Virus record (IMG/VR): IMGVR_UViG_3300047476_001428
Span: 1 to 56,190 of that record
Length of the DNA: 56,190 nucleotides
Strand: one strand, 5' to 3'
Origin: a virus
Taxonomy: Duplodnaviria; Caudoviricetes
Below are positions 12,500-55,078 of this stretch, in pieces (the stretch's first letter is position 1; each line of letters opens with the position of its first letter). The notes under the pieces are model-generated. The model had not been told where the DNA came from. It worked only from the letters and a program-made list of their open reading frames with translations, and searched no databases. A program made the position numbers and the translations under genes.

Positions 12500-12809
12500 A
12501 ATAATAGAAATAGTTGTCTAAACCATTTTTGTAGTCTTGTAATGAAGATACAAGTGGATATGGTATAGTCAATACAGAGTTATTAGGGATGTTCCATTCT
12601 AAACCCCCAAATTGAGGGTTAGCTTGTAGTATCAACCAACCAAAAAATGGTGTTCCGTAATATTCCTGTGAAACTTTATCCAATCTACTAAAACCAGTTC
12701 TATAAACGTATCTTTGGTCAGATGTTTTTGAAGGTAGTGGCACAAATGGAACCACAGTTTGTTCACCGTTAATCAAAAATTGTTGGTATCGGTTGTAATA
12801 TGCGTCCAT
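12489..12809 (-). CDS. Baseplate wedge / LysM-like protein (gp53/gpX-like)
   Basis: 'RLDKVSQEYYG...WLILQANP...IP....LTIP' pattern, size and position. Confidence 0.7.
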   Translation of the reverse strand: MDAYYNRYQQFLINGEQTVVPFVPLPSKTSDQRYVYRTGFSRLDKVSQEYYGTPFFGWLILQANPQFGGLEWNIPNNSVLTIPYPLVSSLQDYKNGLDNYFYYYGR

Positions 12810-35265: not shown

Positions 35266-36939
35266 TTAAGATTCTTTTCTTAATGAACCATCGTAAAATT
35301 CGAACCTATCGTGTTCAGTTGGGGTCATAAGTAGTAGTCCCGGATTGATTTTTCCCTTGATAGTTTCTTGAAAAATAAAACTCATCCATGTCTGTTCAAA
35401 TGGGTGTGCCCATTTTGTTTCTAAGAACATTTTCTTATTACCATGACGGGTTACAACTTGAGGCCAGTTACAATAATAAACCTCACCAGATACAAATGGA
35501 ATACCATTATGTGTCCTTATATGTTTGAATTTTGTTCTTGGAGCATTTGGGTCTTGACCATGAACAGGTAAGTTTGGTTTTTCGGGCCAATGTTCTACTC
35601 TAAAGTTTTGAGGAACATTATACCAAGACCATTGGGTACCATTATCACCATAAAACTCACTATAATTAAACTTTAAGAAATCAAAATGATTCTTTTTTGT
35701 TATTTCTAATGTGTTCTTATATAAATTTGGAACGTATCTATTAAATCCATTTCTACATACTTCTCCTTTTTGGGGGTAAAAGAACATATCATCCTCAAAA
35801 AAGAAATGAAAATCAAAACCATTTTCTTCCGCATGTTCTGCAACCCATTGTCTACCACCACAAATACCTAAATTGTCTTTCTTAATATGTTCAAAACCAT
35901 ATTCCTTACAAAGTTCCGAGTATTTCTCGGTAGTTGATAAATCGGATGAGTTATCTAATAAAAACTTTTTTGGTTTATCCAAAAAATCTTTATCATAGAG
36001 GGTCATCGAATTAAGTAATGTTTCGAATTGTTTTGGACTATTAAATGTGATTACATACAAAGCCGTATTATCAAGGTTTAAGTCATCGTTAATTGGAATA
36101 AAACCTTGTTTGTTTTTTCGTTCTAACGTGTCATTTTTTAAGTCCTCAAAAAACTTACCAAACAAACCGTTAGAGTCAATTTCAAAATAATCAATTACGT
36201 CTGAATGTTTGTAACACATAATTGAAAATATTGACTCCTCAGTCCCCATAAGTCCTCGAGACAACGTAGATGATAACAAGTTGTAATAAATCCCGTTAAT
36301 ATCACCTATTGTGTGTTTTGGACCACCAAAGAACCCTCCACGAGCAACCATTTCTACCTTTTCACCTACAATTCCATTAATCTGATTAAAATTAAATCCG
36401 TGAATCTCATTTTCGGCTTGGTATGGGAAACAAACAAAAGAAAATTTATTAATATAGTTTGGTAATTTATCTAAAACTTTATCGTGTGTAAAATAACCAG
36501 GGTGAACGGTATTTGTTAATCCGGCATCAATCCAAAACATCATATCTGAATTAAATGGGTCCATAATTTTGGCATCATTTAACAAAAATACCTTTGACAT
36601 AACCAAAGGATTGTACATTTCTAATCTTGCCTGTGTTGATTGTGGTAACCAACCTGCTTGATTATACCAATCAGGGTTTGTTCTGATTGTTTGTATTTTG
36701 TCATAAAATTCATTTTTGAACCATTCTTGACTACGAGAGATAAACATTGTATTATCTTTATTTCTCCTTTCAAAAACGAATGATTCTAAATCAGAATCAC
36801 CAAAAATTATCATTGGATTATCAACCTTTAATAGTTGGTCAAACTTATCCAAATAATGTTGGAATGAACGAGACCAACCTTCTTGTAGTTCATCACGTTT
36901 AATATTCCAAAGTCCCGTTACCAATGTTATTTTAGACAT
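35266..36939 (-). CDS. Two-domain glycosyltransferase (HtrL/YibB-like plus GT-A/GT2-like)
   Basis: 'ITLVTGLWNI.R', 'MSKVFLL', FWIDAG, GGFFGG and GTEE in the N-terminal half; 'NLGICGGR..FFEDD' in the C-terminal half. Confidence 0.7.
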   Translation of the reverse strand: MSKITLVTGLWNIKRDELQEGWSRSFQHYLDKFDQLLKVDNPMIIFGDSDLESFVFERRNKDNTMFISRSQEWFKNEFYDKIQTIRTNPDWYNQAGWLPQSTQARLEMYNPLVMSKVFLLNDAKIMDPFNSDMMFWIDAGLTNTVHPGYFTHDKVLDKLPNYINKFSFVCFPYQAENEIHGFNFNQINGIVGEKVEMVARGGFFGGPKHTIGDINGIYYNLLSSTLSRGLMGTEESIFSIMCYKHSDVIDYFEIDSNGLFGKFFEDLKNDTLERKNKQGFIPINDDLNLDNTALYVITFNSPKQFETLLNSMTLYDKDFLDKPKKFLLDNSSDLSTTEKYSELCKEYGFEHIKKDNLGICGGRQWVAEHAEENGFDFHFFFEDDMFFYPQKGEVCRNGFNRYVPNLYKNTLEITKKNHFDFLKFNYSEFYGDNGTQWSWYNVPQNFRVEHWPEKPNLPVHGQDPNAPRTKFKHIRTHNGIPFVSGEVYYCNWPQVVTRHGNKKMFLETKWAHPFEQTWMSFIFQETIKGKINPGLLLMTPTEHDRFEFYDGSLRKES

Positions 36940-37798
36940 TTAATTCTTCTAATATTTTGTAAAAACTTTTATTCTGTTCAAAAAACTCTTTGGTTCCTTC
37001 TTTATGATTATCTTCGTGCCACCAAATATCGAAGTTTAATGTCTTAAACCAATCTTTATGGTTTTGATACATTAATGACATGTAATGCTCTTCATAAAAC
37101 AATTTCTTTTGTTCAGGAATAATAAGTCTAACATAATCATCAAATTGTTTAACTACTTTATCCCATAGTTCAGTTTTTCCACCAAAGAAACCACCAATTA
37201 CATGGACACTATTGTCATATGTTGTATAGAACTTAGGGTCAACAGTACCTTCCCAAAAATTCCTTGAGTTTTCTTTTGCAACCATTACAAATTTATCACC
37301 AGCATACTCAATCAAATTATCTAAAAATTTATCATTGAATAATGATGCTTCATAATAAAATCTATAACCTGGTGCTGATAAATATTTGTCAGGAATTAAA
37401 CCTGTGTGTGATAAACCTGCATCAAACCAAAAATAATAGTCGTAAGATTTATCTTCGTTTTTGAACCAAGAAAACTTGGAGTATTGGATTTCATAACACC
37501 TATCAGATTTTTTTATTTGTTCAATATCCTTAACACCATTAATTAATTCGGCATACTCATTTTGAGACAACTCAAATAAAACAAACTTTAATCTATCTTC
37601 AGAAATATTATGTGTTTTATAAAAAAAATCTTTTAAGTCATCAACCTCTCTTTCAGAAGTATAACAGATAAAATCTGCTTGTGTCATCTTTAATAAAGAC
37701 AACAAACTAAATCTATAATGGTCTTTTCTACCAGGTCTTCCACCTAATTCAGAACCATAAAGGTCTGAATAAATACTTGTCATTATTTTAACTCTCAT
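36932..37798 (-). CDS. HtrL/YibB-like putative glycosyltransferase
   Basis: FWFDAGL, GGFFGG and 'EE..MSLMY' motifs; paralogous to the neighbour's N-terminal domain. Confidence 0.6.
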   Translation of the reverse strand: MRVKIMTSIYSDLYGSELGGRPGRKDHYRFSLLSLLKMTQADFICYTSEREVDDLKDFFYKTHNISEDRLKFVLFELSQNEYAELINGVKDIEQIKKSDRCYEIQYSKFSWFKNEDKSYDYYFWFDAGLSHTGLIPDKYLSAPGYRFYYEASLFNDKFLDNLIEYAGDKFVMVAKENSRNFWEGTVDPKFYTTYDNSVHVIGGFFGGKTELWDKVVKQFDDYVRLIIPEQKKLFYEEHYMSLMYQNHKDWFKTLNFDIWWHEDNHKEGTKEFFEQNKSFYKILEELNV

Positions 37799-38516
37799 TG
37801 TTGTTTCTTAGTTCTATACATTTATCGTAGTCCATATATTTTCCATCAATTTTATCGGGAAAATATACATTCCAATTATATGTCATTACATAAAAATTTG
37901 AATCGATTGTTTGGTTAATATCAGAATAATCTCGTTTTTGAACCACTAACGGTAATTTAGCCGAAAAAGATTGTATATTAGGATAGACTGCCCTATCTAA
38001 AAATTCATCAATTGGAATTTGCATATGACTATTCTCAATAATGTCATTGGTATTCCATTTAACAATATATTCACAAGCCTTTCTTGTTAGAATAAATCCT
38101 GAAGTACCAAAAATACCTCTATGTCTATTAAGGTCTTTTGGTGGTAATGTTGTTAAATCAATTAAGTTTTCTGAGAATCTATTTAACGGTCTATGAATTG
38201 ATGGTGCCAAATGAAAAAAATACCATTCATTATTATTCAACTCTTCTTCAATCATTGGAATAAGATTTTTGGTATATGGCATAAAGAAAATGTCATCTTC
38301 AAATACCATGGCATATTCATATCCTCCATCTAAAATCATTTGTGCAATTTTTTGATGGGAATAAGCACAACCCTCATAACTATTTGTATCAATTGCGTTG
38401 AACCTTTCAAAAGTCCAACCCATATATTCAAATTCTTTTGTAACATCTTTTAACCTATCAGGCCTTCTTTCAAGATTGACTACAAATTTTGGTATTTCAT
38501 TAAAATTAATTTTCAT
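37788..38516 (-). CDS. Glycosyltransferase family 25-like
   Basis: 'VVNLERRPDRL', 'GCAYSH', 'VFEDD' and 'PIDEF' GT25 motifs. Confidence 0.8.
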   Translation of the reverse strand: MKINFNEIPKFVVNLERRPDRLKDVTKEFEYMGWTFERFNAIDTNSYEGCAYSHQKIAQMILDGGYEYAMVFEDDIFFMPYTKNLIPMIEEELNNNEWYFFHLAPSIHRPLNRFSENLIDLTTLPPKDLNRHRGIFGTSGFILTRKACEYIVKWNTNDIIENSHMQIPIDEFLDRAVYPNIQSFSAKLPLVVQKRDYSDINQTIDSNFYVMTYNWNVYFPDKIDGKYMDYDKCIELRNNNES

Positions 38517-39267
38517 ATATTAAATTTTGTCTGTTTTCATATCCTCGTCTATGAACAAAAATAACCGCATTATTTTCCATTGCGGTTTGATAATTTCTAT
38601 TTGTGTCAGTCCAATAACCAAAAATATCGATGTTTTGTTTTGGACAAGAGTATCTTGACGCTAAAATTGATAAAACACTTTGGTCATTTCTATGGTTTTC
38701 TTCCTGACCAATAGTACATCCTTGTAAAGCGTATTGATAAGCCTTTTCAAATAAATGGTCGAATTTACCACCTTTTTTATATCCTATAATACCAGCTGAT
38801 AGTTGAGTGTCATTCATTTCAGATTCAGTTGCTTCCATAATAGTTGAACATGTTTTATGAGTATAGTTTCTATTCAAATGAATATCACCAACCATAAAAA
38901 TTTCATCTTTTTCAATTAATTCATAAATGACACACATATTGTTAATTGGTGCTGCACCAGCATCTAACCAAAAAATGTTTTCAGCAAAATTCTTACAATA
39001 GGTTAAACAGAATAATTTATACATATAACTTTTTGGTACCAAAGAATGTTCGTGACTATCAATATAATCTTGTGGATAATCAACAACACTAACATTCTTC
39101 AAAGATTTCAAAGTGTTAATTTCTGAAATATCTAAACCCAAATTAAATACGTAAATTTGTTCTACACAATCAAGACCAAAAGTGTGTACCCCACTAATCA
39201 ATGTTAATAAAGAATAGTAGTAGGCACTATTTGCTGTTGTAACTAAAATATTCTTATAAATTTGCAT
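38506..39267 (-). CDS. Putative GT-A glycosyltransferase (DUF1647-like)
   Basis: 'LVTTANS.Y', 'FNLGL', FWLDAG and 'HRNDQSVLSIL' motifs. Confidence 0.6.
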   Translation of the reverse strand: MQIYKNILVTTANSAYYYSLLTLISGVHTFGLDCVEQIYVFNLGLDISEINTLKSLKNVSVVDYPQDYIDSHEHSLVPKSYMYKLFCLTYCKNFAENIFWLDAGAAPINNMCVIYELIEKDEIFMVGDIHLNRNYTHKTCSTIMEATESEMNDTQLSAGIIGYKKGGKFDHLFEKAYQYALQGCTIGQEENHRNDQSVLSILASRYSCPKQNIDIFGYWTDTNRNYQTAMENNAVIFVHRRGYENRQNLIYEN

Positions 39268-40063
39268 TCAAAAAATTATTAATGATTATTTCAGGGTGCA
39301 TATATTGTTTGGCAATATCAAAATTCTTTTTAATCGATTCCATTTTTGATTGGTAAAGTTCATCTGTTAGTTTTTCCAAGATGTTTGGTAAATCTTCATC
39401 ACCCTCAAAGTGTATAATACCGTTTTCATCAAAATAATCGTTCACCGATTTTGAACCAACATAGATTGGAATGGTACCTGATAAGAAACAATCAAGTAAT
39501 TTTTCGGTGAAATACCCATTTTCAATACTATTTTCAATAACGATTGAGAACTTATAATCTTTTAACGATTCGATTTTATATTCAATAGGTTTTTCACATC
39601 CTGTTCCATAGAAATCAACACGAGTATCATCTTTTAATCTATCGTAAACACGGAATCTCATTCTGTGATATGGGTTCCATTGTTTCCATGAAAAAACACA
39701 ACTAACCAACTTACTTTTATCGTGAATACCAATATCTTCAGTTCTTAACCAAGTTCCACCGTGTGGAATAAAAATAATATTTGAGTCATCTGAAACAATA
39801 TTTTTATGATGTGTAAAAATATATTTGAAATTGTCCTTTTCTTTAACAATATTAATATAGTTTTCACCGTTTATAATTGGTGGTTCTATTAACCAAGCAC
39901 AATTTGTTTTACTACCATCCTTTGGTTGAGTAAAACACATTCTATCGACATAGATACCAACATCATATGTTTCAGGTTCACGTTCCCAATTACTTTGGGG
40001 GTCTATATATCTTGATAATCCTGGTTGTCCAACCAAGTTCTCATCAAATAATTTTACATTCAT
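39254..40063 (-). CDS. Glycosyltransferase family 10 (alpha-1,3-fucosyltransferase-like)
   Basis: 'YKFSIVIENS...YFTEKLLDCFLSGTIPIYVG' matches the GT10 signature. Confidence 0.8.
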   Translation of the reverse strand: MNVKLFDENLVGQPGLSRYIDPQSNWEREPETYDVGIYVDRMCFTQPKDGSKTNCAWLIEPPIINGENYINIVKEKDNFKYIFTHHKNIVSDDSNIIFIPHGGTWLRTEDIGIHDKSKLVSCVFSWKQWNPYHRMRFRVYDRLKDDTRVDFYGTGCEKPIEYKIESLKDYKFSIVIENSIENGYFTEKLLDCFLSGTIPIYVGSKSVNDYFDENGIIHFEGDEDLPNILEKLTDELYQSKMESIKKNFDIAKQYMHPEIIINNFLNANL

Positions 40064-40802
40064 TTTTTTGTTCCATTAAATAAATTAAATTGTTTATTTG
40101 TTGTTTGTATTGATTATAAGGTCTCAATGAGTGACAGTCGTAATAGTATTCTTCTAAAACTAAATTAAAATCATGTGAACCCCAATTACCTCTATCAATT
40201 CTTTTTGTGGCATAACCAGTTCCAAAACCTCTTTGTAATTTTACAATTTTTTCTCTGTTCGATTGTTCCCATTCAAAAACACACGAACCAAAAAATATTT
40301 CATCAGTGTCCCACCCAAGTCCAAGGGTGTTTAACTTAATAGCAAAATCTTGAAATGATGAATCTATATTCATGATTTCCTTAAATGTTTTACTTGTTGC
40401 TAAATTATAACACATTGGATATCTTTTTTGGTCTTGATATCCGTAAGCGTCTGATGTGTAGATTAATAAACTATCATTACTTACACCTTTTGCATTATCT
40501 ACAAAATATGTTTTTGATAATGGAATCATATCCAAATCAGAAATTAAACAAGTTTTTTCACCAAATAGTGATGATACGTACAATCTAGCAATTTGAGATT
40601 GTAAACCTGTGTTAATACCATCAACTTTTTTGTAACTTACTAAGACATGTTCTTTAGTCTCTTCAAAACTATCTTCATCACCGATGGTAACTAATATTGG
40701 TTTTACACCAATAATTTTGTTCCAACAACCTTTAACTAAATCCCAAAAACCATCATATAATTGATTACCATCGGTAGAAACTATAGCATAGTCAATATTC
40801 AT
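40044..40802 (-). CDS. Putative glycosyltransferase (DxD-type)
   Basis: 'SDLDMIPL' DxD motif and 'WDTDE' motif; embedded in the GT array. Confidence 0.5.
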   Translation of the reverse strand: MNIDYAIVSTDGNQLYDGFWDLVKGCWNKIIGVKPILVTIGDEDSFEETKEHVLVSYKKVDGINTGLQSQIARLYVSSLFGEKTCLISDLDMIPLSKTYFVDNAKGVSNDSLLIYTSDAYGYQDQKRYPMCYNLATSKTFKEIMNIDSSFQDFAIKLNTLGLGWDTDEIFFGSCVFEWEQSNREKIVKLQRGFGTGYATKRIDRGNWGSHDFNLVLEEYYYDCHSLRPYNQYKQQINNLIYLMEQKNECKII

Positions 40803-40804
40803 AA

Positions 40805-42052
40805 TTATAAATTTCCTGTGATTCTATTACACCAGTCTTTAGAAACTGAGTGAGGCCAAACAACCCAATACTTTGGTTTATGTTCTGTTTGGAATTCTCT
40901 CCATACTTTACAGTAACCATCAGGGTCGTTCATCATTCTATTGATTTCATCTTTGTCAGCATCTTTTCTGAATAAGGTTTCATCATTTTCACCGTGGAAA
41001 GCGACAACCCAAAAATCATAATCTTTTTCAGGGACTTGTGAGAATCCAATATCGATACAATGTTTGAATACTTGAGCAAAATTTTTCTTCCATTCTTCTT
41101 CAGATTCAAAGTTATATGGATTTGGTGGGTAATTCTTATCTAACGTATACTGTTGAACCGCTCTCTTTTCAAATAAAAGACCTGAATATTTTTCATAATC
41201 TCGTAATGTTCTAACAGGTCCAAAACCATAAGGTCCATCATGACCTTCTTGTTTTTCACCATCCATACCAAATAATTTTCTATTGGTAAAATGTGAATGA
41301 CTATTTTTTTCACCCCAAGATTTATCGTCATCCCATTGTTTTGTTCTACCTTTACGAGTATATTCGTGCCAAATCAAAACTTTATGTGGGTGGAACAAAT
41401 CATAACCCCAAGTGTAAGCTCTTGCGGCAATTGATATTTCTTCACCGTGAAAATAATATTCAGGATTGTGTTGCACTTCTGTTGAGAATTGTCCCAAAGT
41501 AAAACAATAATGTGCTGAATAGAAACGAGAGGTAATTGGTTCGGTCATATCTCTCCAACCTGGTATTGTTTCAGGTAAGAAGAATACCGCACCTTCAGGA
41601 ATGAATCTATCAAACACCATTCTCCAAGGTTCTTGCATTCTACCTTGAGGGTCATTATCTGGGTCAAACGAAGAAACATAACCCGTTAACAATGGTTTTT
41701 CATGTCCTTTCTTTTGAAGTTGTTTAATCATCTTAATCATTTCATCATCCCAATTGGGTGCGAATCTCATATGTGAATCGATTTGAAGTGTATACTCTTC
41801 ACCTTGATACAATTGTTGGACTTGGTGTCTTGCCCAACAAACACCTTTTGATTCTTGATAAGGAATGTTAAGGATTCTAAATCTTTTATCGTTTTCGTAT
41901 TCTGACATGTTATCAAACCCGTCTTCAGGGTGAAACTGTCTTGCAATACCAATTCTTAAATTTTTTGGTTTTTTGGCATTCTCAATCATGTTTTTGATTG
42001 TGTGAACCAACTGAGGGTCACGATAAGAAGCAATTTGAACAAATATTTTCAT
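40805..42052 (-). CDS. GT60-like UDP-GlcNAc:polypeptide/hydroxyproline GlcNAc-transferase
   Basis: 'IFVQIASYRDP', 'SKGVCWAR', 'LQIDSHMRF..NWD', 'FHGEEI..AARAYT.GYD' and 'WHEY.R' match the Gnt1/GT60 pattern. Confidence 0.82.
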   Translation of the reverse strand: MKIFVQIASYRDPQLVHTIKNMIENAKKPKNLRIGIARQFHPEDGFDNMSEYENDKRFRILNIPYQESKGVCWARHQVQQLYQGEEYTLQIDSHMRFAPNWDDEMIKMIKQLQKKGHEKPLLTGYVSSFDPDNDPQGRMQEPWRMVFDRFIPEGAVFFLPETIPGWRDMTEPITSRFYSAHYCFTLGQFSTEVQHNPEYYFHGEEISIAARAYTWGYDLFHPHKVLIWHEYTRKGRTKQWDDDKSWGEKNSHSHFTNRKLFGMDGEKQEGHDGPYGFGPVRTLRDYEKYSGLLFEKRAVQQYTLDKNYPPNPYNFESEEEWKKNFAQVFKHCIDIGFSQVPEKDYDFWVVAFHGENDETLFRKDADKDEINRMMNDPDGYCKVWREFQTEHKPKYWVVWPHSVSKDWCNRITGNL

Positions 42053-42106
42053 GAAAATAGTTTTTCAAAAAAATATCAAAGGAATTGAAAAAGTTAATAG
42101 GAAAAA

Positions 42107-43282
42107 TTAAGTAAATGTCAATTTCCAATTCACTAACTCGTGGTTATCATTTGAACCACCTGTGGCGGCACCAAATCCCATATAGTAACTTGTTGAATCA
42201 AATGTAAATCCTGTGTAGGTAAATTGAGACGAGCCAGGTTTTGTACTTGTTGTTGAAATGTATAAATTGGCCGTTGAAGTTGCATGATTATAATCCAACC
42301 AGTAATACAATGTTTGTCTCCAACTTGTTCCATAAGATTGACTACCTTGAGAAACGCTACTTTCCCACCATGTTACATCATTATTACCAAATGTCGTAAA
42401 ACTAAGAGCATTTATTGTTGATAAAGAATCTATTCTACTAACACCTCCACCAGCGAGTCCTGTTGAATTATTTGTTGTTGTCCACTGAACACAATATCCG
42501 TCAGCGCCAGTTCCTCCACCAATAATGAACTCCCATTGAGCTGAGAAATTTCTATTATATTGGATTGCACTTGTTCTATAGACATTACCCGATTGACCAT
42601 TTGTATTTGTTGTTAAATAAAGAATGTTTGATGATAATGTTGTACTACCAACAGAAACCGTATCTGCTGTTGATGCGAAGTTTGTATAATCAAATCCTTG
42701 TAAATTTGGTGTGTTTGTTGGGGTTGGTGTTGGTGTTTCTGTTGGTGTTTCTGTTACCGTAGGTGTTGGAGTTCCTGTTGGTGTTTCTGTTACCGTAGGT
42801 GTTGGAGTTCCTGTTGGTGTTTCTGTTACCGTAGGTGTTGGAGTTCCTGTTGGTGTTTCTGTTACCGTAGGTGTTGGCGTTTCTGTTGGTGTTTCTGTTA
42901 CCGTAGGTGTTGGCGTTTCTGTTGGTGTTTGAGTAGGAGTTTCGGTATATGTAGGTGTTACAGTTAGAGTTGGTGTTGGTGATTCAGTAACTGTTGGTGT
43001 AATGGTAGGCGTTACCGTTAGACTTGGTGTTGGAGTTATAGTTGGTGTTAATGTAGGTGTTGGTGTTGGACACGCACCGCTAACAATTAATGGATATGTT
43101 GTGTCACTCCCTGAGAAATACATAAAATAACTCCCCTGTGGAGTTCCATCTGCAGGAAAAAATGTAAACGGGATAGTTTCTTCACCCAACAAATATGTTA
43201 GATTAGTTCCATCTTCCAAAAAAGTCACTTGACAAGTTTGTCCTGAAAATTTAACACTTGAAATTAATACACCACAAGCCAT
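42107..43282 (-). CDS. Virion surface-like protein: N-terminal domain, Pro/Thr mucin-like linker, legume (L-type) lectin domain
   Basis: About 120 aa of TP/PT repeats; C-terminal 'LYLT......GNVY', 'GADG', '[22 protein letters not shown]' L-lectin signature. Confidence 0.8.
42739..42930. repeat. 36-bp coding tandem repeat, about 5.3 copies
   Basis: Unit CTGTTGGTGTTTCTGTTACCGTAGGTGTTGG(A/C)GTT(C/T) at 42739, 42775, 42811, 42847 and 42883; encodes TPT(G/E)TPTPTVTE on the minus strand. Confidence 0.95.
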
Positions 43283-43284: not shown

Positions 43285-45438
43285 TTAATAAATATATTGG
43301 TAAGTAAAGTCACCCTCTATATTAACATCACAGTTCTTACAGTATGGGTTTAATAGTTTATATTTGTTTTTCAACACTCTTGCGTTGTGCTGTATTTCAG
43401 GAACCGACAATGGTTTGGCATATAGACTAAATGTTGAAATACCCCCATCAAAAGTTCCCGCAAAATTTTGTTCAATTAATATATTAGTTGTTAAAGCGCT
43501 TAAACTTGTTCCACTTAAAATATTTGGTGGGAATAATTCAGGGTCTTGTATATACTCGTTATAAAGTGATGAAGGTAATCCACTGAAAACTAAATTTTCG
43601 TGTAAACCTTGTGTTCCACCACCCCAAGAAATATTAAACGGTACCCCAACTTGTGTTTCTTTTGGTCCATATAATCCACGAGGAATAATTTCTTCAAAAT
43701 CATCAAATGTAACAAAATGTTTTCCATTCACATAAATTTTTAATTTACCTTTACGGTAATCTTTTTCTAACAGCCAATTATTGTTTAAGTCAACCAATTC
43801 AATAACTGGTGGGATTAATTGGTAATGTGTTATTGGTGGTGATATCAACGAAACAGAGTTTTGGTCTGTAGATGCGGTGTATGGAACTGATGTTATTACA
43901 CCTAATCCTCCACGATAAACCAAATCACAAGTATCAAACCAAGTGTATCGTTCAAATACAACATCAACTAACACCCAATGTTCTTGGTTATCATATGTCG
44001 TACCACTACAATCATCGTATATTCCTTTGGTAGAACAATAATTGTTAATAGAATAACCTGTAACCGATTCTCTACCTAATGTTTCACACGCTCCTGTAAA
44101 AATACAATCACCTGTAAATGTTAATGTTCTTGCACAAATTTTTGGATTACGTGGGTCACCACTAAATTTAATCGCTAAGGCGTTTGACATTGAATCGTAC
44201 CATGTGTTCAAATCGTCCACCCAATCTTGAGGTCCTGTACAACATGGTGTATTGGTATAATGATAATTTGTCGTACCTGTTGGGGGGTAAACAGGATAAC
44301 AGTTTGAAACAGCATATTCTAAAAAGTCTGGTTTGTCTACCAGCCAAAACTCAAATTCTGATGGGTGTACTCGTTCGGTTACTGTAAACCCTATATATCC
44401 TGTGGACGCTGTGTAACCAGTAACGGTACCAATAACATAACTTTCAAAATCGTGATAAACCAATATGTCGTCACCCGTCATCCATGATAAGTTTGGAGTA
44501 ATCCAAAGATTACCACTTGATGTGTACATGTCAAAATACGTGGTCGATGATGATGTATAACCAGGGTTTAAGTCTTTACACATACAAGTTGTTTCACCTG
44601 TTAATGTTTCTGTCACACGAGTGTAGGCTGTATACCCTGAATTTGAACCGTTTGCATGGTGCCAATATTTGTTTTCAGCACGTGTTCCCATATAAAAGAA
44701 AATCCCTGCGTTATCAGGATAATAATCATTTAATGTTGTTTGACCCGATTGAGGTAAATACTCATCGTATAATCTTGGCTTTAATGTTAATTCAACGGAC
44801 CAACCTTTATGATATCTTTCAGGTAAGATTTGGTAATCATACCCAAACAATTCATAAAATCCTTGATAAAAACCACCATATAATTCGTGATAAATTCCAA
44901 CATCTGCAGCATTATATGAAACAACTTCATACATTGTTCCTGCGGTAACACCTGAAAATCTATGATTTGGGTTCCAAGTATAACCTGTTACTTGGTGCAT
45001 TTTTAATCGTCTATCAAACTTTTTTCTATCAAATTTGTCAACATCTGGTAATAATCCATTTGTGAATGTAATCGTCTCACCCGTCATTTGTGTTACCAAA
45101 CCATTATCAGTACCTGTAAGTCCAATATCACAAATTGTTTTTGATGAAAAACAACTTAAATCTAACTGTAAGTCATTATAATAATTTTCTGAAATAATAA
45201 TATTTTCAGGTACGTATTCACCATAATTCAAAATATATCCTTCACTTGAACCCGAACTATTTAAGTTCATTTTTACAGGTAAAACATTACCATCGTTAAC
45301 ACCAATAATGAATGGTGAGAACACAACTTCTTCGTTATATTCACGTTCATCGTTGGATAATGATAGGTCTTCAACTTGCTGAACAGGTTGTAAATACCAC
45401 TTATTATAGACATATTGATTAATGTTCTGATAAGACAT
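43285..45438 (-). CDS. Virion structural protein with a LamG/concanavalin A-like fold
   Basis: '[10 protein letters not shown]' and '[23 protein letters not shown]' LamG-type ending; Cys-rich inserts. Confidence 0.6.
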
Positions 45439-47048: not shown

Positions 47049-47444
47049 ATGAAACTTTTAGGTTCGTTAAAATCATTAATAACTGAGGCAGCATCAATTG
47101 ACGATATCAAAAAATCAATTGAGCAAAGACAAGTATGCTCGATTTATTATGAGGGTGATGAACCAGGTGGTAGAGGTTTAAGAGAAATAGAACCTGTTGC
47201 TTTAGGTCGTTCAAAAGCAGGTAACTTAGTGTTAAGAGCTTGGGATAAAGAAGGTTCTTCTCATACCGCTTATAAAGGTGAACAACCGCTCCCATCTTGG
47301 AGATTATTTCGTGTTGATAAAATAACTATGTATAAACCTTTACGTGATATCTTTACAGAACCTAAACCAGGCTATAACTTTAACGGTGATAAGAGTATGA
47401 CCCAAGTTATAGTTATCGCTAAATTCCCAACACAAACAGTTTAA
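47049..47444 (+). CDS. Stand-alone WYL-domain protein
   Basis: 'SIYY.......REIEPVALG......VLRAW.....WRLFRVDKI' WYL signature; no HTH domain. Confidence 0.8.
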   Translation: MKLLGSLKSLITEAASIDDIKKSIEQRQVCSIYYEGDEPGGRGLREIEPVALGRSKAGNLVLRAWDKEGSSHTAYKGEQPLPSWRLFRVDKITMYKPLRDIFTEPKPGYNFNGDKSMTQVIVIAKFPTQTV

Positions 47445-48037: not shown

Positions 48038-48086
48038 TACTTTTTTTTATGTGATAAACTTACTATACTTTAGTAAAAGTTTATCT

Positions 48087-49298
48087 ATGTCAAAAATAAA
48101 AATATTAGTATTACCATCCGACAGAACAGGAGTTGGTAAGTTTCGTTCAATTGACCCACACATTTTCTTACAGAATTTATACCCAAATGATTTCCACGTG
48201 GATATCGTTTATGACCCTCCAATGGAGGATATGAACTTTTGGAAAGAATATCCAATTGTACATTTTCATAGAACTATTGGTTTAGATTACGATAAATCAA
48301 AATCATTTATCGAAAAACTAAATGATATGGGTATCATCACCGTTATGGATTTAGATGACTATTGGTTACCAACCAAAGACCACCCAATTCATGATTTGGT
48401 AGTTGTTAATAAAATACACGAAAAAATTATGGCTAACTTAAAAGTTGCCAAGTATGTAATAACAACTACAAGTGTATTTGCAGATGAAATTCGTAAATTA
48501 AATAAAAATGTTGTAGTTTTTCCAAACGCAATTAACCCAAAAGAACCACAGTTTTGTGAAAAGACTGAAAAATCGGACAAATTAAGATTTGGTTGGTTAG
48601 GCGGTTCATCACACTTACATGATTTAACAATCTTAAATGATTTATTTCAAAGAATGGAACCATATAAAGACAAGTCACAAGTTTATCTTTGTGGTTTTGA
48701 TATTAGAGGTACTGTTACTGAGATTAATTCTCAAACTAAAGAACAAACTAGAAGAGATATTAAACCTCATGAAACAGTGTGGTACCAGTTTGAAAATATT
48801 TTCACCGATAAGTTCAAATTGATTAGTCCTGAATACCGAGAATTCTTGGAAAAATTCAAAGAAATGGATGATTCAAATTTTAAGGATGAGTTTTATCACA
48901 GAGTATGGACAAGACCCGTACAATCTTATGCTAAAAATTATGCAAAATTTGATGTATCTTTGGCACCATTGAAAAATCACATTTTTAATAAAGTAAAATC
49001 ACAATTGAAAGTAATTGAGGCAGGTTTCTATAAGAAAGCGTTGATTGCTAGTAATATCGGTCCTTATACTATTGATTTGAAACACTCACTTAACCAAGGT
49101 AATTTTGTTGATGGTAACGCTTTGTTAGTTGATGAAAGTAGAAACCATAGTGATTGGTTCAAATACGTTAAGAAATTAATTGATAACCCGACTTGGGCTG
49201 AAGATTTAGGTGAAAGATTATACGAAACTGTAAAAGACAAGTATGATTTGAATGTTGTTACACACACAAGAGCAGAATTTTATAAATCACTATTATGA
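48087..49298 (+). CDS. GT-B (GT4-like) glycosyltransferase
   Basis: 'DLDDYW', 'FGWLGGSSH..D' and 'DVSLAPL....FNKVKSQLKVIEAG.....IAS...PY'; probable start is the ATG at 48087. Confidence 0.78.
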   Translation: MSKIKILVLPSDRTGVGKFRSIDPHIFLQNLYPNDFHVDIVYDPPMEDMNFWKEYPIVHFHRTIGLDYDKSKSFIEKLNDMGIITVMDLDDYWLPTKDHPIHDLVVVNKIHEKIMANLKVAKYVITTTSVFADEIRKLNKNVVVFPNAINPKEPQFCEKTEKSDKLRFGWLGGSSHLHDLTILNDLFQRMEPYKDKSQVYLCGFDIRGTVTEINSQTKEQTRRDIKPHETVWYQFENIFTDKFKLISPEYREFLEKFKEMDDSNFKDEFYHRVWTRPVQSYAKNYAKFDVSLAPLKNHIFNKVKSQLKVIEAGFYKKALIASNIGPYTIDLKHSLNQGNFVDGNALLVDESRNHSDWFKYVKKLIDNPTWAEDLGERLYETVKDKYDLNVVTHTRAEFYKSLL

Positions 49299-49996
49299 TA
49301 CAACCAGCATTAACTAAAGTTTTATTCTTTGACATTGAAACTGTCGGAATAACAAAAGATTTTCCCGAACTTGAGGAAAAGTACCCCGCATTGGCCAAAC
49401 AATTCCACAATTATTTTGATTGGTTTTTGAAAAGGTTTCCTGAAGACCAAGGATTGACACCTGGTGAGGTTTTTGTAAATAGAGCGGCATTGGTGCCTGA
49501 ATTTTCAAAAATAGTTTGTGCTAGTTTTGCGTTTGTTGGACCTGATGGAAAAACACACGCACAAACTTTTTCAGGTGACAACGAAAAAGAAGTTTTGTCA
49601 GGTATTAATGGGCTTTTAACCAAAGTATTCAAATTAGATTTTTGGTTGTGTGGACATAATATTAAAATGTTTGATATACCAGTATTAAGTAAACGTATGG
49701 TTATCAATGGAATAAAACCATCACCATTATTACCTTCTTACGATACAAAACCATGGGAAATTAAAGCAATTGACACTATGGATGTATGGAAAATGGGTAA
49801 TAACTTTGCATTATCATCGTTGGAACTTATGTGTGCCGCAATGGGTGTAAAATCACCTAAAGAAGGTGAGGTTACAGGTAACCGTGTTCATGAAGCTTAT
49901 TATGACTTTAATCAGCTTGACTTGATTGTTGAGTATTGTGAAAGAGATGTAATGGTACTAATTGACATAATTAAAAAATTAAAAGAACTACAATAA
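49295..49996 (+). CDS. Stand-alone PolB-like 3'-5' exonuclease (DEDDy)
   Basis: FFDIET, GHNIKMFDIP and YCERDV motifs. Confidence 0.85.
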   Translation: MIQPALTKVLFFDIETVGITKDFPELEEKYPALAKQFHNYFDWFLKRFPEDQGLTPGEVFVNRAALVPEFSKIVCASFAFVGPDGKTHAQTFSGDNEKEVLSGINGLLTKVFKLDFWLCGHNIKMFDIPVLSKRMVINGIKPSPLLPSYDTKPWEIKAIDTMDVWKMGNNFALSSLELMCAAMGVKSPKEGEVTGNRVHEAYYDFNQLDLIVEYCERDVMVLIDIIKKLKELQ

Positions 49997-49997
49997 T

Positions 49998-50591
49998 ATG
50001 AGCGAAGAAATTGATTTATTAAGAGACGAATTAAGTAAAATTCTAAAACAACTTCAAGAAGAATCTGAAGGCGAAACTAAGTATGAAATTGAAGAAATTG
50101 CTGGTGTTAATTTGAAAGAACTTGAAAAAGCATTTGACAATCAACAACCTAAAATGACTTTGGAGTTTATTAAAATTCATCCAGATGCTGTAAGTCCAAA
50201 ATATAATTACCCAACAGACTCAGGTTTTGATTTACACTCAACTGAAGGTGTTGGTATCCCACCACAATCAAGAATGATTGTTGGTACAGGTTTGAAATTT
50301 AATATTAAAGATGGTTTTGAAATGCAAGTAAGACCTAAAAGTGGGTTAGCATTAAAACAAGGATTGACGGTTTTGAATACACCTGGTACTGTTGATTCAG
50401 GATATGACGGAGAAGTTAAAGTTATTCTATATAATTCATCACATGACACCGTTTACATTGAAAGAGGTCAGAAAATTGCTCAGGCATGTATTTGTCCTGT
50501 AGTAAATGGTAAATGGATTCAAACAAAAGAAGTAACAGAAATTAGTGGAAAAGATAGAGGTGATAATGGTTTTGGTTCAACAGGAATATGA
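49998..50591 (+). CDS. dut: Trimeric dUTPase with an acidic N-terminal extension
   Basis: DSGFDL, RPKSG, GTVDSGYDG, KIAQ and RGDNGFGSTG motifs. Confidence 0.93.
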   Translation: MSEEIDLLRDELSKILKQLQEESEGETKYEIEEIAGVNLKELEKAFDNQQPKMTLEFIKIHPDAVSPKYNYPTDSGFDLHSTEGVGIPPQSRMIVGTGLKFNIKDGFEMQVRPKSGLALKQGLTVLNTPGTVDSGYDGEVKVILYNSSHDTVYIERGQKIAQACICPVVNGKWIQTKEVTEISGKDRGDNGFGSTGI

Positions 50592-52018
50592 TTACAATAG
50601 GCTTTAGTACAAGAAAAATTGACGAAAATTACATCACATTACTTGAAAAAAGTTGTGGAAATAAAAACGTACAAATAATACCAATAGAAAACAATGGCGA
50701 ATACTCATTGTCTGAGGTATATAATAAGATTTTAGACCAAGCAGAAAACGACATTGTTGTTTTATGTCACGATGACTTAAAGTTTGATACAACAGGTTGG
50801 GTTTATAAATTAAAATCTCATTTTGAGAAAAACCCTGAATATGGTATTATCGGTTTAGCGGGTTCCAAATACATGCCAAAGTCTGGTATGTGGTGGGAAG
50901 TACAATCAACGATGTATGGTATTGTAAACCATGAACACGAAGGTAAGAAATGGGAATCAAAATACTCAAAAGAAATTGGTAATAAACTTGAACCAACTGT
51001 TATGGTAGATGGTTTATTCTTTGCGGTTCACAAACAAAGAATCAAAAAGAATTTTGACGAAACAGTTAAAGGATTTCATTTTTATGATGTAACATTTTCA
51101 TTCCAAAACTATTTGGAAGGTGTTAAAGTTGGTGTTTGTACTGACATACGTGTAACCCACTTGTCTATTGGTCAAACAAACGAACAATGGGAATCAAACA
51201 GAGTCGAATTTGCAAAGAAATTTGAAGATGTATTACCAGTTGATAACACAATTTCAGATAAAACGTTAAAAACCTTTATTTTTGTTCACGACCAAGATTT
51301 GGTTGAGTTGTTTGAAGAGAACAATAAATTCAAAGGTTTCAATGATTATACTTATGTGTTTGTTGGAAACAGACCTTGTAATAAAATTGAGAATTTATCA
51401 AATGTTATTATTTCAAGAAACTATGAAGGTCACTTGGAAGATTACCCTAAGTTAACATCATTTAGTGGTTGGTACACATTGTGGAAACACAAGTTAATTG
51501 ATACTGAATATGTAAACTTATTTGAGTATGACGTAAACTACGTACCTGATTTCTTACCACAGATTTCAAAAATGTTATATGATAAACAAGATATGATTGG
51601 ATATATTCCATTTCCAGCACCTCATCAAATGTTTATTCAACACCCACCATTCATTGATACCTTATTCAGAACAATCAGAAAGACATACCATCTTGATATT
51701 CAAAGATTGTTGATGAACGCAATTAATGAGGGTAAAATGGCCTACTGGTCATCAACATCTAACACAACATTTAGAAAGAGTGTCTTTGACCAATACATGA
51801 ATTGGATGTCACCTATGGTAGATGAAATTAAAGTCGACCCAAATGCAGGTCACTTACATGAAAGGTCAATTACTATCTTTGCATCAATGAAAAATAAAAA
51901 ATTGATACTTACAAATGGTTTCTTAAAACATTATCAAATGGATTCACATAAAACACAAGGACATTATGTGGATGAAAAAAGTTCAATAAACCAACTTTTA
52001 GAAAATAAAGTACAATAA
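50588..52018 (+). CDS. Two-domain glycosyltransferase (GT2-like plus a second GT-like domain)
   Basis: 'SLSEVYN', 'VLCHDD', 'VDGLF' and 'FHFYD' in the N-terminal domain; 'FEYD' and 'HLHER' in the C-terminal domain. Confidence 0.72.
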   Translation: MITIGFSTRKIDENYITLLEKSCGNKNVQIIPIENNGEYSLSEVYNKILDQAENDIVVLCHDDLKFDTTGWVYKLKSHFEKNPEYGIIGLAGSKYMPKSGMWWEVQSTMYGIVNHEHEGKKWESKYSKEIGNKLEPTVMVDGLFFAVHKQRIKKNFDETVKGFHFYDVTFSFQNYLEGVKVGVCTDIRVTHLSIGQTNEQWESNRVEFAKKFEDVLPVDNTISDKTLKTFIFVHDQDLVELFEENNKFKGFNDYTYVFVGNRPCNKIENLSNVIISRNYEGHLEDYPKLTSFSGWYTLWKHKLIDTEYVNLFEYDVNYVPDFLPQISKMLYDKQDMIGYIPFPAPHQMFIQHPPFIDTLFRTIRKTYHLDIQRLLMNAINEGKMAYWSSTSNTTFRKSVFDQYMNWMSPMVDEIKVDPNAGHLHERSITIFASMKNKKLILTNGFLKHYQMDSHKTQGHYVDEKSSINQLLENKVQ

Positions 52019-52677
52019 TGAATTATGTGAGTTTCAGTTTGTGGGGTAACCAACCAATTTATAACGTTGGTGCTATCAGAAATGCAGAACTTATGAAAAC
52101 AATCTATCCTGATTGGAAAATGATTGTTTATTATGACAACACAGTCCCAACTGAAACAATTGAAAAATTGAATGAGTTGGGTGTTGTTGTTAAAGATATG
52201 ACAGGTACGGATATCTATGGTATGTTTTGGAGATTTTTTGCTCATGATGAATCTGATTGTCAATATTCCGTTTTCAGGGATGCTGATGCCAGAATAACTG
52301 AAAGAGAAAAACTTGCTGTAGATGAATGGATTAATAGTGGAAAATCAATCCACGTAATGAGAGACCATCCCGCACACCAAATTCCATATGGAAATAATTC
52401 ATTAGGAATACTTGGTGGTATGTGGGGAATTAAATCAGGTGTTATTCCACTAACGGATTTAATACGAAGATTTCCAAAATCTAAAGAACTCCAATATGGT
52501 AATGACCAAACATTCTTAAAGACCATATACTCAATTTTTCAAGATGATAGATGTACTCATGATGAATTTTTTGAGAATAAACCTTTCCCTATCAAAAGAA
52601 ACCCTGGTGAGTTTATTGGAAGTCGTATTGACCAAAATGATAAACCATTTGGGACCGACCACTTGGCCGTATCGTAA
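52018..52677 (+). CDS. Putative glycosyltransferase (DxD-type)
   Basis: 'SFSLWG...Y..GA..NA', 'MFWRF', RDADAR, 'MRDHP.H', GGMWG and 'DQ.FL' motifs. Confidence 0.6.
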   Translation: MNYVSFSLWGNQPIYNVGAIRNAELMKTIYPDWKMIVYYDNTVPTETIEKLNELGVVVKDMTGTDIYGMFWRFFAHDESDCQYSVFRDADARITEREKLAVDEWINSGKSIHVMRDHPAHQIPYGNNSLGILGGMWGIKSGVIPLTDLIRRFPKSKELQYGNDQTFLKTIYSIFQDDRCTHDEFFENKPFPIKRNPGEFIGSRIDQNDKPFGTDHLAVS

Positions 52678-52688
52678 AAAATATTACA

Positions 52689-53420
52689 ATGACAAAAAAA
52701 ATTTTAGTCTTAGTTCAAGAACATGACACAACAGATGAGGTATTTTTAACATATAAAAAAACTTGGTTAAAAATAATTCAATATATTAAGGATAAAAAAA
52801 TACCTATGGACGTATTATTCTTAAATACAAATGAGAGTATTAATGAAGAATATGAAATCATTGACAATACAATTTACAGTAAATACGAAGAAAATTATTG
52901 GGACGCGTTATTGATAAAAGTCATGAACGGGTTTGATTTTTTTATGAAAAACGATTATGACTTAGTCTTCAAAACTAACTTGTCGACAATAATAAATGTA
53001 GAATTATTTTATAATTTTTGTAATGAACGATATAATAATGATGAAATTGTTTATGATGGTTTTGTCGGTCATCACAATGATTTTGCATTTTGTTCAGGTG
53101 CCGGAATGTTGTTAAATAAAAATTGTGTAAACATACTTATAGACAATAAAGATAAAATAAGTAAGGAATGGACTGATGATATTTTTTTTGGATATGTTTT
53201 GAATAAATTAAACTCTATATCCCCGAATAATCGTGGGTTATCAAGATTTGACATATTGTCTGACATAAATTTAACAAATAACATTAAAAATTTCACACAC
53301 ATTCGTATAAAAATAAGAAATAATAATAAAGACATTCATTATACTAATGAGGTCTACAATATACTTTTCACTGAAGATGAATATAGGATTATCAACAATG
53401 ACCAAAAACCAAGGATGTAG
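52689..53420 (+). CDS. GT31/galactosyltransferase-like protein
   Basis: 'YDLVFKTNLST', 'FCSGAGMLL' and 'WTDDIFFG' parallel the GT31 motifs. Confidence 0.55.
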   Translation: MTKKILVLVQEHDTTDEVFLTYKKTWLKIIQYIKDKKIPMDVLFLNTNESINEEYEIIDNTIYSKYEENYWDALLIKVMNGFDFFMKNDYDLVFKTNLSTIINVELFYNFCNERYNNDEIVYDGFVGHHNDFAFCSGAGMLLNKNCVNILIDNKDKISKEWTDDIFFGYVLNKLNSISPNNRGLSRFDILSDINLTNNIKNFTHIRIKIRNNNKDIHYTNEVYNILFTEDEYRIINNDQKPRM

Positions 53421-54087
53421 GTTAAAAGAATGGGTCACATATCATAAAAATTTAGGTCACGATAAATTTATTATTTTTTTAGACAATTGTACTGACAATT
53501 CTGAAGAAGTATTAACTGAATTGAAATCAACAGGAATCGATATTGATTTTTTTTTGACTAAAGATTTTGAACTTACAATTCCAGACGCCGAGTGGGTTAG
53601 AAGGTCTCATAAAATGTACGATTTTGTACTTGAGAATTATTCTCATTTAGATTGGATATCATTTATTGAAGTTGATGAATTTATTTTTCCTCAGAAAGAG
53701 GATTTTCCATTTAGAGAATTTTTATCAGGAATTAACACTAATTGTCTGTATATTAACTCTTGGGATTTCAAACCACCATTTGATGAAACTAAAGAAATTT
53801 TAGGACAATCATATCATGTTTGGACCGACTCACAAAGATTTCACTCACCATATAGATGGAGAGGTAAATCGGTCATTAAACCAAAAGAATTTATTGAGTG
53901 TGTTGATGCACATCATTTTAGACAAAAAAATGGTGATGTGTCAAATGAATTAAAATGTGAACATGAAAATTATACACAAAAATTCTATGGAGATGAAGTT
54001 ATAATGGATGATACACTATTAAGAATTTATCATTTCCGTAATCATACAGAACCTACTCTAAACGAATATCAAGAAATAAAGTATTGA
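53377..54087 (+). CDS. GT92/GT2-like glycosyltransferase
   Basis: 'LKEWVTYH..LG', 'DNCTDNS', 'WISFIEVDEF', 'KSVI' and 'IYHF'; probable start at 53377. Confidence 0.72.
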   Translation: MNIGLSTMTKNQGCRLKEWVTYHKNLGHDKFIIFLDNCTDNSEEVLTELKSTGIDIDFFLTKDFELTIPDAEWVRRSHKMYDFVLENYSHLDWISFIEVDEFIFPQKEDFPFREFLSGINTNCLYINSWDFKPPFDETKEILGQSYHVWTDSQRFHSPYRWRGKSVIKPKEFIECVDAHHFRQKNGDVSNELKCEHENYTQKFYGDEVIMDDTLLRIYHFRNHTEPTLNEYQEIKY

Positions 54088-54088
54088 T

Positions 54089-55078
54089 ATGAAGATTGCA
54101 ATTATAGGTGGTGGATGGGTTGGTTGTCATTTGGCCAGCAAGTTAAAAAATGACCATGACATTACCTTGTTTGAAAAAAATAAATCTATTTTTGGTGAAA
54201 CATCAAGTAAAAACCAAAACAGGGTCCATGAAGGTTATCACTATGCAAGAAGTTTTAACACAAGAGAATTATGTAAAACTACAATCAATAAATTTACCGA
54301 TGAATATGGTTTTGCAATAAACAATGTTGACAAAAACTACTATTGTGTTCCCGAACATAAATCAATTGTTGATTATAAAACATACCTTCAAATTTTTAAT
54401 GGTTTTGATTTTATTGAAACTAATCATAATCTTAACAATTTAGAAGGTTGTATCTTAACATCAGAAAAACACATTGATTTTAATAAGATAAAAAATTATT
54501 TTGAAGAAAATCTTTCGGACATAATTGTAAAAAAAGAAATTAATAAAAAAGATTTATCTGACTTATCTGAAAATTTTGATTTAGTCATTAATTGTACCAA
54601 TAATCAATTAAACAATTACCATGACGATGATTTTTTTTATGAATTAACAATCTCTCTTATTTATCAAAAAATTAATGAAACTGAATTTGATTCCTTAACA
54701 ATGGTTGATGGAAAATTCTTTTCAATTTACCCATACAAAGATGATTTGTTTACATTAACTGATGTTGAACACACCCCCATTAAGAAATTCAAAAAATATA
54801 AGACACTTAAAGATTTTGAAAAAAATATCAACCCCAAAAAAGTTTCCAAAATCAAAGAAAAAATGGAACAAAAAGTTTTGGAGTACTTTCCACAGTTTAC
54901 CGATAATTTCAAATATCAAAATTATTTCTTGGCGGTAAAATCAAAGATTAACGATACCTCAGATACCCGATATCCCATCATTACTCATCAAAATAATGTA
55001 ATTAATTGTATTACAGGTAAAATACAAGGAATTTATATTATTGAAGATTATATTAATGATGTTATATTGAAGAAATGA
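54089..55078 (+). CDS. FAD-dependent oxidoreductase
   Basis: GGGWVG Rossmann motif, 'LFEK', 'NQNRVHEGYHYARS' and 'GKI'. Confidence 0.8.
   Translation: MKIAIIGGGWVGCHLASKLKNDHDITLFEKNKSIFGETSSKNQNRVHEGYHYARSFNTRELCKTTINKFTDEYGFAINNVDKNYYCVPEHKSIVDYKTYLQIFNGFDFIETNHNLNNLEGCILTSEKHIDFNKIKNYFEENLSDIIVKKEINKKDLSDLSENFDLVINCTNNQLNNYHDDDFFYELTISLIYQKINETEFDSLTMVDGKFFSIYPYKDDLFTLTDVEHTPIKKFKKYKTLKDFEKNINPKKVSKIKEKMEQKVLEYFPQFTDNFKYQNYFLAVKSKINDTSDTRYPIITHQNNVINCITGKIQGIYIIEDYINDVILKK

Follow-up and report, generated by a model that had tools for sequence, protein, structure and literature searches.

A candidate mucin-type O-glycosylation island in uncultured jumbo phages: a GT60 glycosyltransferase encoded beside exchangeable Thr/Pro-stalked, lectin-headed proteins

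Which acceptor does a glycosyltransferase of family GT60 serve when it is encoded by a phage, and is it the protein encoded directly upstream, in which a threonine- and proline-rich (PT) linker carries a lectin-fold head? This question is raised by a 56,190-nt stretch of viral DNA (IMG/VR record IMGVR_UViG_3300047476_001428, positions 1 to 56,190; hereafter the window), which corresponds to ~19% of the estimated genome. In a sequence-only reading of the window, the two genes had been taken for an enzyme-substrate pair, with the enzyme adding N-acetylglucosamine (GlcNAc) to Thr of the linker. According to our analysis, the phage probably sugar-coats its own stalked proteins, as far as this can be judged from sequence. 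We lean towards the view that the GT60 enzyme is the initiator, and a variable set of neighbouring glycosyltransferases the extender cassette, of a phage mucin-type O-glycosylation island that decorates the Thr/Pro stalks of modular lectin-headed proteins.

The enzyme matches the Pfam family PF11397 ('GlcNAc') with an E-value of 2.6e-66 and 224.9 bits (cut-off 21) over residues 1-43 and 53-294, and phrog_24687 ('glycosyltransferase') in PHROG with an E-value of 1.4e-164. The hidden Markov model search thus bears out the family that had been read from the letters, and by its profile matches the open reading frame (ORF) is a true member of PF11397/GT60. NCBIfam holds no name for the enzyme, nor for 6 neighbours, and a sequence search against the PDB returned nothing meaningful. 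The family is large, with 7290 proteins at E <=1e-5 in one library and 4544 clusters (50% identity) at E <=1e-3 in another. Many environmental relatives (P0242-P0255 and others) are giant proteins of 800-2461 residues that contain two to four tandem GT60 domains.

The AlphaFold model of the enzyme has a predicted local distance difference test score (pLDDT) of 95.8. Ranks 1-29 of its VIA-align comparison are all GT27 polypeptide N-acetylgalactosamine (GalNAc)-transferases with Z-scores of 19.0-22.4, in which 258-300 residues are aligned within model residues 1 to ~327, at root-mean-square deviations of 3.2-3.8 Å in 28 of the 29 and 7.2 Å in the last. Other GT-A families reach Z-scores of <=18.0, and the best Foldseek matches among solved structures are almost all GT27 polypeptide GalNAc-transferases. 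The modelled fold most resembles that of the GT27 enzymes which initiate mucin-type glycans in animals and apicomplexans, although the sequence identity to these is only 10-15%. Across an alignment of 55 relatives, the most distant at 34% identity, D92, H94 and H229 do not vary; the local sequence at the D-x-H motif is QIDSHMRF. This motif and the distal His are taken to be metal ligands, by analogy with GT27 structures. An N-terminal hydrophobic segment or anchor is absent, and the enzyme would therefore act in the cytoplasm. The ricin-type lectin domain of GT27 enzymes was not recognised in the phage enzyme, whose extra C-terminal part (residues ~330-415, modelled mostly as strands) is reached by few of the VIA-align alignments; GT60 enzymes are described as lacking the C-terminal ricin-like domain of GT27 (PMC8724618).

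As far as these sources describe them, GT60 enzymes are relatives of GT27 that start mucin-type O-glycans in Dictyostelium and Trypanosoma cruzi, with one cytoplasmic branch acting on Skp1 hydroxyproline (PMC8724618; PMC3769586). The characterised enzymes transfer alpha-GlcNAc to threonines in mucin-like peptides in an Mn2+-dependent reaction (PMC3769586; PMC8724618), and known members use uridine diphosphate (UDP)-GlcNAc on peptides such as KPPTTTTTTTTKPP (PMC3769586). With the protist enzymes Gnt2/modB of Dictyostelium and TcOGNT-2 of T. cruzi the phage enzyme shares the Pfam family and the invariant DxH-type motif with its distal His, and here too the putative acceptor, encoded next door, is a Thr-rich, Pro-containing repetitive protein. 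Unlike the protist enzymes, it is soluble and without a signal anchor, is predicted to work in the bacterial cytoplasm instead of the Golgi, and has the additional ~85 residues at its C-terminus.

What, then, is the neighbouring protein? Both ORFs lie where the sequence-only reading had placed them, the GT60 gene starting 54 nt after the end of the PT-lectin gene, and the gap (42053-42106) contains no terminator-like hairpin or site. The linker of the PT-lectin protein consists of 59 Thr and 32 Pro among 134 residues and is the sole PT tract in all six frames of the window. In the predicted model the pLDDT is ~80-98 for the head, <50 for the linker and 34-65 for the N-domain. The head scores 28.6 bits against the Lectin_leg-like family PF03388 (cut-off 24) and 30.4 bits against Lectin_L-type_dom PF18483, below that model's cut-off of 78.3. 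In Foldseek, its best listed hits comprise legume lectins or lectin-like proteins, a legume-lectin domain of archaeal origin (template modelling (TM) score 0.74 on the target), 7elv, ERGIC-53 and VIP36. The L-type lectin domain noticed in the sequence-only reading is upheld by these matches, and in its predicted structure the head has the legume-lectin fold, as found in the L-type lectins ERGIC-53 and VIP36 and in the Methanocaldococcus jannaschii legume-lectin domain (Foldseek E ~1e-11, TM 0.62-0.74 on the target).

L-type lectins hold sugar and metal through the Asp of an Ala-Asp-Gly loop, a Gly-Gly loop, an Asn, and a metal-binding Glu and Asp. In the alignment of the phage head, A260-D261-G262 is invariant and G278-G280 is invariant or nearly so; the Ala-Asp-Gly loop and the C-terminal strand 'G.G..TG...DNH', which is common to the head and VIP36, are thus conserved. 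In contrast, the sole alignment of the head to a legume lectin, a weak one (E 0.34), sets the Glu and Asp of 'EFDT', which hold Mn/Ca in the legume lectin, opposite Thr and Leu. We therefore regard the lectin fold of the head as established and sugar binding by it as a possibility. Among head homologs (201 proteins matched), a PT tract precedes the head and follows an N-terminal domain that differs between proteins in 94 of the 120 listed. In a single case, a 91%-complete viral record without PF11397, the head homolog is a bare 215-aa protein with no linker. A tblastn search of the PT-lectin protein against cultured phages gave no match.

Is the proximity of the two genes particular to this genome? 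We compared 80 related IMG/VR loci, in which GT60 is 78-95% identical; 61 of these are non-redundant and 48 have at least 1.5 kb of sequence upstream. The loci share a constant frame of p717, a variable stretch, GT60, a variable glycosyltransferase cassette, p557, p126 and the polymerase (gene names as in Table 1 and below), and the variable stretch before GT60 contains between one and four genes for PT-linker proteins that vary in number, length and head domain. A PT tract on the same strand ends within 1.5 kb of the GT60 start in 37 of the 48 loci. The share of loci with a PT tract declines steadily with upstream distance, and downstream of GT60 no tract was found in any of the 59 loci, in each of the first four kb. 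A strict PTPTPTPT DNA pattern proved too narrow, finding nothing in record G004 though locus L081 of that record has a PT-rich ORF. The PT feature persists near GT60 while the genes that carry it are exchanged. GT60 itself was present in every relative fetched. A p557-seeded search for relatives without it returned 21 of 79 loci that showed none, yet no natural knock-out: these 21 have short upstream stretches or lie on contigs that had been seen to carry GT60 at a distance of more than 10 kb.

Association of GT60 with PT tracts was also seen in loci chosen by other means. IMG/VR loci seeded only by the DNA pattern (TP)6 contained GT60 in 9 of 120 cases, compared with 0 of 119 for loci seeded by (AP)6 (Fisher p 0.0033), so that the co-occurrence of GT60 and PT-repeat genes across phages, which the sequence-only reading had put forward as a check, was found here as well as in the related loci. 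We also examined 80 bacterial or metagenome-assembled genome (MAG) loci with GT60 relatives: a same-strand PT tract occurs up to 3 kb upstream in 11 of them, up to 3 kb downstream in 4, and in the outer 14 kb in 6, counts that come without a shuffle control and include several G+C-rich loci. Among cultured phages, XacN1 and Xoo-sp13 of Xanthomonas encode a 47%-identical enzyme homolog (XacN1 ORF334, 46.6%), and giant ORFs of the two contain PT tracts (7 and 5 pattern matches; controls 0). A 765-aa carbamoyltransferase directly follows the GT60 homolog in both, and DNA polymerase and RNase H genes lie a few genes off. The XacN1 paper reports virions with 'at least two glycoproteins' and lists a pair of glycosyltransferases that includes this homolog; the part of it available to us draws no link between them and names neither the glycoproteins nor the enzyme responsible (PMC5852040). 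XacN1 therefore resembles the system proposed here in its virion glycoproteins, its enzyme homolog and its PT tracts.

What do these patterns say of the proposed enzyme-substrate pair? The association of GT60 with PT genes stands, across relatives, PT-seeded loci and some bacterial loci. The dedicated pair does not, as PT-stalk genes are numerous and exchangeable, the PT-lectin gene among them. Because GT60 has no adjacent PT gene in some loci, PT tracts also occur far from GT60, and most PT tracts and bacterial GT60 loci are unpaired, we think it likelier that the enzyme is a conserved initiator, serving in trans any PT-stalk protein that the genome encodes, than that it is the partner in a private pair.

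What we observe is the order of the genes, their families and folds, and the association across loci; on acceptor, donor, extension steps, virion location and the role of the head, our inferences are as follows. The soluble GT60 enzyme would use a UDP-N-acetylhexosamine (UDP-HexNAc) donor, by family analogy UDP-GlcNAc, with the metal held by D92-x-H94 and H229. It would transfer the first sugar to Thr hydroxyls of disordered Thr/Pro linkers in the host cytoplasm, before or during assembly. The PT-lectin protein may be one target, and further targets would be encoded at other places in the genome. Extension of the sugar would fall to the downstream cassette (p252, GT10-like, p253, GT25-like, p288 and p557); as its composition changes from relative to relative, so would the glycans. 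The result may be an extended, protease-resistant glycosylated stalk that holds the lectin-fold head away from the anchor of the 66-aa N-domain, probably on the virion. GlcNAc as the sugar, a stiff stalk and a carbohydrate-binding head, as proposed in the sequence-only reading, and display on the virion are likewise possibilities. A wider version, namely that an abundant freshwater jumbo-phage clade runs a complete cytoplasmic mucin-type pathway, with a conserved GT60 and a swappable cassette, on the PT stalks of swappable lectin-headed appendages, we advance only tentatively and regard as doubtful. In that version, the GT25-like and GT10-like pair of this window could build an N-acetyllactosamine (LacNAc)- or Lewis-x-like O-glycan, provided that the first sugar is GlcNAc, and glycan coat and binding head would both be diversified by cassette exchange at a single locus.

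Table 1. Genes and sequence features of the GT60 island, in the direction of transcription (window coordinates).
Feature	Coordinates	Strand	Description
p717, conserved upstream flank	43285..45438	-	717 aa; PT-lectin gene starts 2 nt after its end
PT-lectin gene	42107..43282	-	391 aa; N-domain 1-66, Thr/Pro linker 67-200, lectin-fold head 195-391
Thr/Pro linker region	42686..43075	-	Predicted disordered; proposed O-glycosylation acceptor
Tandem DNA repeat	42726..42930	-	36-nt unit x 5.7 copies, 97% identity; codes 12-aa unit
Head domain, legume (L-type) lectin fold	42110..42700	-	Assigned by PF03388, pLDDT, Foldseek and A260-D261-G262
GT60 / PF11397 glycosyltransferase	40805..42052	-	415 aa, soluble; D92-S-H94 and H229; proposed initiating polypeptide HexNAc-transferase
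p252	40044..40802	-	No family match; lead only: nucleotide-diphospho-sugar transferase / GT8-like; 2 nt after GT60 end
GT10-like (fucosyltransferase C-terminal domain)	39254..40063	-	269 aa; PF00852 E 1.1e-13
p253	38506..39267	-	No family match; homologs 49-56% identical in relatives' cassettes including L010, L018, L022 and L051
GT25-like glycosyltransferase	37788..38516	-	242 aa; PF01755 E 8.4e-18; phrog_2835
p288, putative glycosyltransferase	36932..37798	-	Weakly like the HtrL/YibB-like half of p557 (BLASTP E 8e-4); homologs in many relatives
p557, conserved downstream flank	35266..36939	-	N-terminal half HtrL_YibB-like, PF09612 E 1.7e-16

The island comprises nine co-directional genes from p717 to p557, separated by gaps of 2 and 54 nt or overlapping by 8-20 nt (Table 1). 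A promoter scan was uninformative, with 63 sites against 60.1 expected. The upstream flank, p717, has no significant family in Pfam or PHROG and matches viral clusters only, with a ConA-like lead at 0.87. Its homologs, 45-73% identical, lie upstream of GT60 in relatives, and in many of these they are fused to a PT linker and a ConA-like head in proteins of 942-1314 aa, the head being Laminin_G_3 in L005. The downstream flank, p557, has 596 relatives in IMG/VR. Its second half scores 23.3 bits against the TAGT family PF20691, under the cut-off of 27.5, and p557 is therefore not counted as a TAGT member. A 126-aa ORF (p126) and then the DNA polymerase gene follow.

How well does the interpretation as a mucin-type island withstand the observations that speak against it? 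Related loci share descent, and the synteny counts are therefore not independent events and by themselves amount to conserved placement. Within 1.5 kb upstream, a PT tract is lacking in 11 of the 48 related loci, 8 of which have none in the upstream stretch examined; in complete relatives, PT tracts also occur far from GT60. At least 5 of the 9 PT-seeded loci with GT60 are close kin of this clade, the PT- and AP-seeded sets differ in G+C (0.39 vs 0.50), and 111 of the 120 PT-seeded viral loci have no GT60 in the stretch fetched. Among the bacterial and MAG loci, 53 of 80 have no PT tract in their flanks (27 have one). The island lies outside the recognised tail module, and neither p717 nor the PT-lectin protein matches a structural PHROG.

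Several of these observations would also fit a GT60 enzyme that glycosylates another phage or host protein, with PT-stalk genes adjacent only because the clade has a hot spot for swapping fibre or adhesin genes at this place. GT60 is constant while PT genes come and go, it stands without an upstream PT tract in the 8 related loci mentioned, and in viral contigs PT tracts often occur with no GT60 close by. Among the GT60 representatives listed, only 2 of 150 have a P/T- or P/S/T-rich tract within the same protein. On the other side stand the enrichment of GT60 in PT-seeded over AP-seeded loci and the same-strand PT tract directly upstream in 11 of 80 bacterial or MAG loci, which belong to unrelated lineages. 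The known GT60 acceptors, as described in PMC3769586, are moreover Thr-rich mucin-like peptides. We consider a target other than PT stalks unlikely.

A second alternative is that the island builds glycans on a non-protein acceptor, either a host lipo-oligosaccharide or other envelope glycan or, by hypermodification, the phage DNA, and that the PT-lectin gene is unrelated cargo. The families GT25, GT10 and HtrL/YibB are typical of lipo-oligosaccharide and lipopolysaccharide synthesis, and their presence in the cassette weighs against a protein glycan and makes such a pathway possible for the cassette. A link to DNA is suggested by p557, with its weak TAGT-like stretch, its weak match to a PHROG of beta-glucosyl-HMC alpha-glucosyltransferase (E 1.1e-5) and its position two genes upstream of the gene for DNA polymerase. 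The homolog of XacN1, among replication genes and beside a carbamoyltransferase, and a dUTPase / dCTP-deaminase-like gene in the window point in the same direction. Against this stand the GT60 catalytic domain, which in the model is closest to polypeptide GalNAc-transferases, and the characterised members of the family, all of which act on protein as far as PMC8724618 describes them. For DNA in particular, a thymidylate-synthase / hydroxymethylase-family gene (PF00303) is missing from the closest complete relative and lies ~100 kb and ~177 kb from the island in the 2 of 3 complete relatives that have it. A TET/JBP (PF12851) match was found neither in the window nor in the 3 complete relatives, in a search in which the control genomes were silent too. 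A non-protein acceptor would also leave the PT association unexplained. We give this alternative a low probability.

A third possibility is that the acceptor is hydroxyproline and not Thr, with a phage or host prolyl 4-hydroxylase acting first and GT60 then acting like Gnt1 on Skp1; the Gnt1 branch of GT60 is described as acting on hydroxyproline (PMC8724618). The sequence-only reading had preferred Thr because no prolyl hydroxylase was visible in the window. None was indeed found there, neither in a PF13640 search nor in Pfam scans of 28 ORFs. This absence is a weak argument, since the window covers ~19% of the genome and the closest complete relative (G003, GT60 93% identical) has two PF13640 prolyl-hydroxylase-type domains, which count against our interpretation. 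The hydroxylase cluster of that relative has no homolog in the window; it is located ~210 kb away from GT60, next to a collagen-like tail fibre and further glycosyltransferases. Thr is still favoured, because 2 of the 3 complete relatives have no PF13640 domain; in the linker, Thr is almost twice as frequent as Pro. We regard the hydroxyproline route as very unlikely. The cluster of G003 is an observation in its own right: at 285500-293500 (L169), a tail fibre with collagen-like Gly-x-x repeats and a chaperone-like C-terminus is encoded beside two prolyl-hydroxylase-type 2-oxoglutarate (2OG) oxygenase domains and a separate GT2; one oxygenase domain shares its protein with a GT2-like domain and an additional C-terminal region.

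How would a mucin-type island compare with systems that are known? Gnt1 of Dictyostelium and Toxoplasma, which acts on Skp1, is likewise a soluble cytoplasmic GT60 enzyme whose product is extended with Gal and Fuc by other soluble glycosyltransferases (PMC8724618). It differs in requiring a prior prolyl hydroxylase and in having a single protein target, whereas the phage window and 2 of the 3 complete relatives are without a hydroxylase. Mycobacteriophage-encoded glycosyltransferases are reported to glycosylate virion proteins (Freeman et al. 2023, as cited in PMC12619734), and the likeness lies in phage glycosyltransferases that are thought to modify the phage's own proteins. There, the glycans are found at the C-termini of capsid and tail-tube subunits and not on PT stalks, according to PMC12619734. 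Papers on GT60 in phages, or on O-glycosylation of phage PT stalks, did not turn up in our literature searches.

From which kind of phage does the island come? Among the products of the window (G+C ~33%) are a tail sheath of 1050 aa, a baseplate hub, a family-B-type DNA polymerase and proteins resembling DnaB and UvsX, and related IMG/VR records measure 209-344 kb, 3 of them being 98-100% complete. By its tail sheath, baseplate hub and DnaB-like and UvsX-like genes, together with these large related records, the window is a piece of an uncultured jumbo myovirus; the same genes and the jumbo-sized relatives led us to drop an origin from a giant eukaryotic virus. A nucleotide search of the island DNA against cultured phages gave no match. 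The 'moraphages', a lineage of aquatic jumbo phages described in 2025 (PMC12619734), measure 200-307 kb and have four glycosyltransferase orthogroups in their core. The closest enzyme relatives outside IMG/VR (69-72% identical; L089-L094) lie on low-G+C contigs binned into MAGs, one of them 230 kb long, and labelled Saprospiraceae in 4 of 6 cases, Bacteroidia in 1 and Melainabacteria in 1. These are probably phage contigs, and their labels are a hint to the host group at most.

Elsewhere in the window, two giant ORFs of 2174 and 1634 aa (5975-12499 and 12809-17713, both on the minus strand) adjoin the baseplate and tail-sheath genes and have no PHROG match. A 517-aa ORF (28940-30493, plus strand) begins with a complete Fe/Mn superoxide dismutase of 230 residues (Sod_Fe_N E 2e-20, Sod_Fe_C E 2e-39), followed by ~290 residues without an assigned function. 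A second set of sugar genes is located on the strand opposite to the island (48051-55078, plus strand) and contains GT1-like (phrog_7162), GT2_5 and GT92/GT2_4 genes and an FAD/NAD-binding oxidoreductase, interspersed with an exonuclease and the dUTPase / dCTP-deaminase-like gene. A small WYL-domain protein (47049-47444, plus strand; E 4.9e-5) is encoded just upstream of it. With the island and this second set, the window holds at least 7 glycosyltransferase-like genes.

To our knowledge, there are only a handful of systems in which a phage glycosylates proteins of its own, and mucin-type initiation by GT60/GT27 enzymes has been studied in eukaryotes alone. The proposed island would combine known kinds, phage self-glycosylation and GT60 mucin-type initiation. 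If our interpretation is true, an abundant environmental phage group would make densely O-glycosylated stalks in the bacterial cytoplasm with a soluble, easily expressed initiator. This would provide a testable model of protease resistance and surface variation in phage appendages, and a simple enzyme for producing mucin-like glycopeptides in Escherichia coli. It may likewise offer a handle on the prokaryotic history of the enzymes that initiate mucin-type glycosylation; under the wider version, such phages and their bacterial relatives would also represent a prokaryotic reservoir of GT60/GT27 enzymes.

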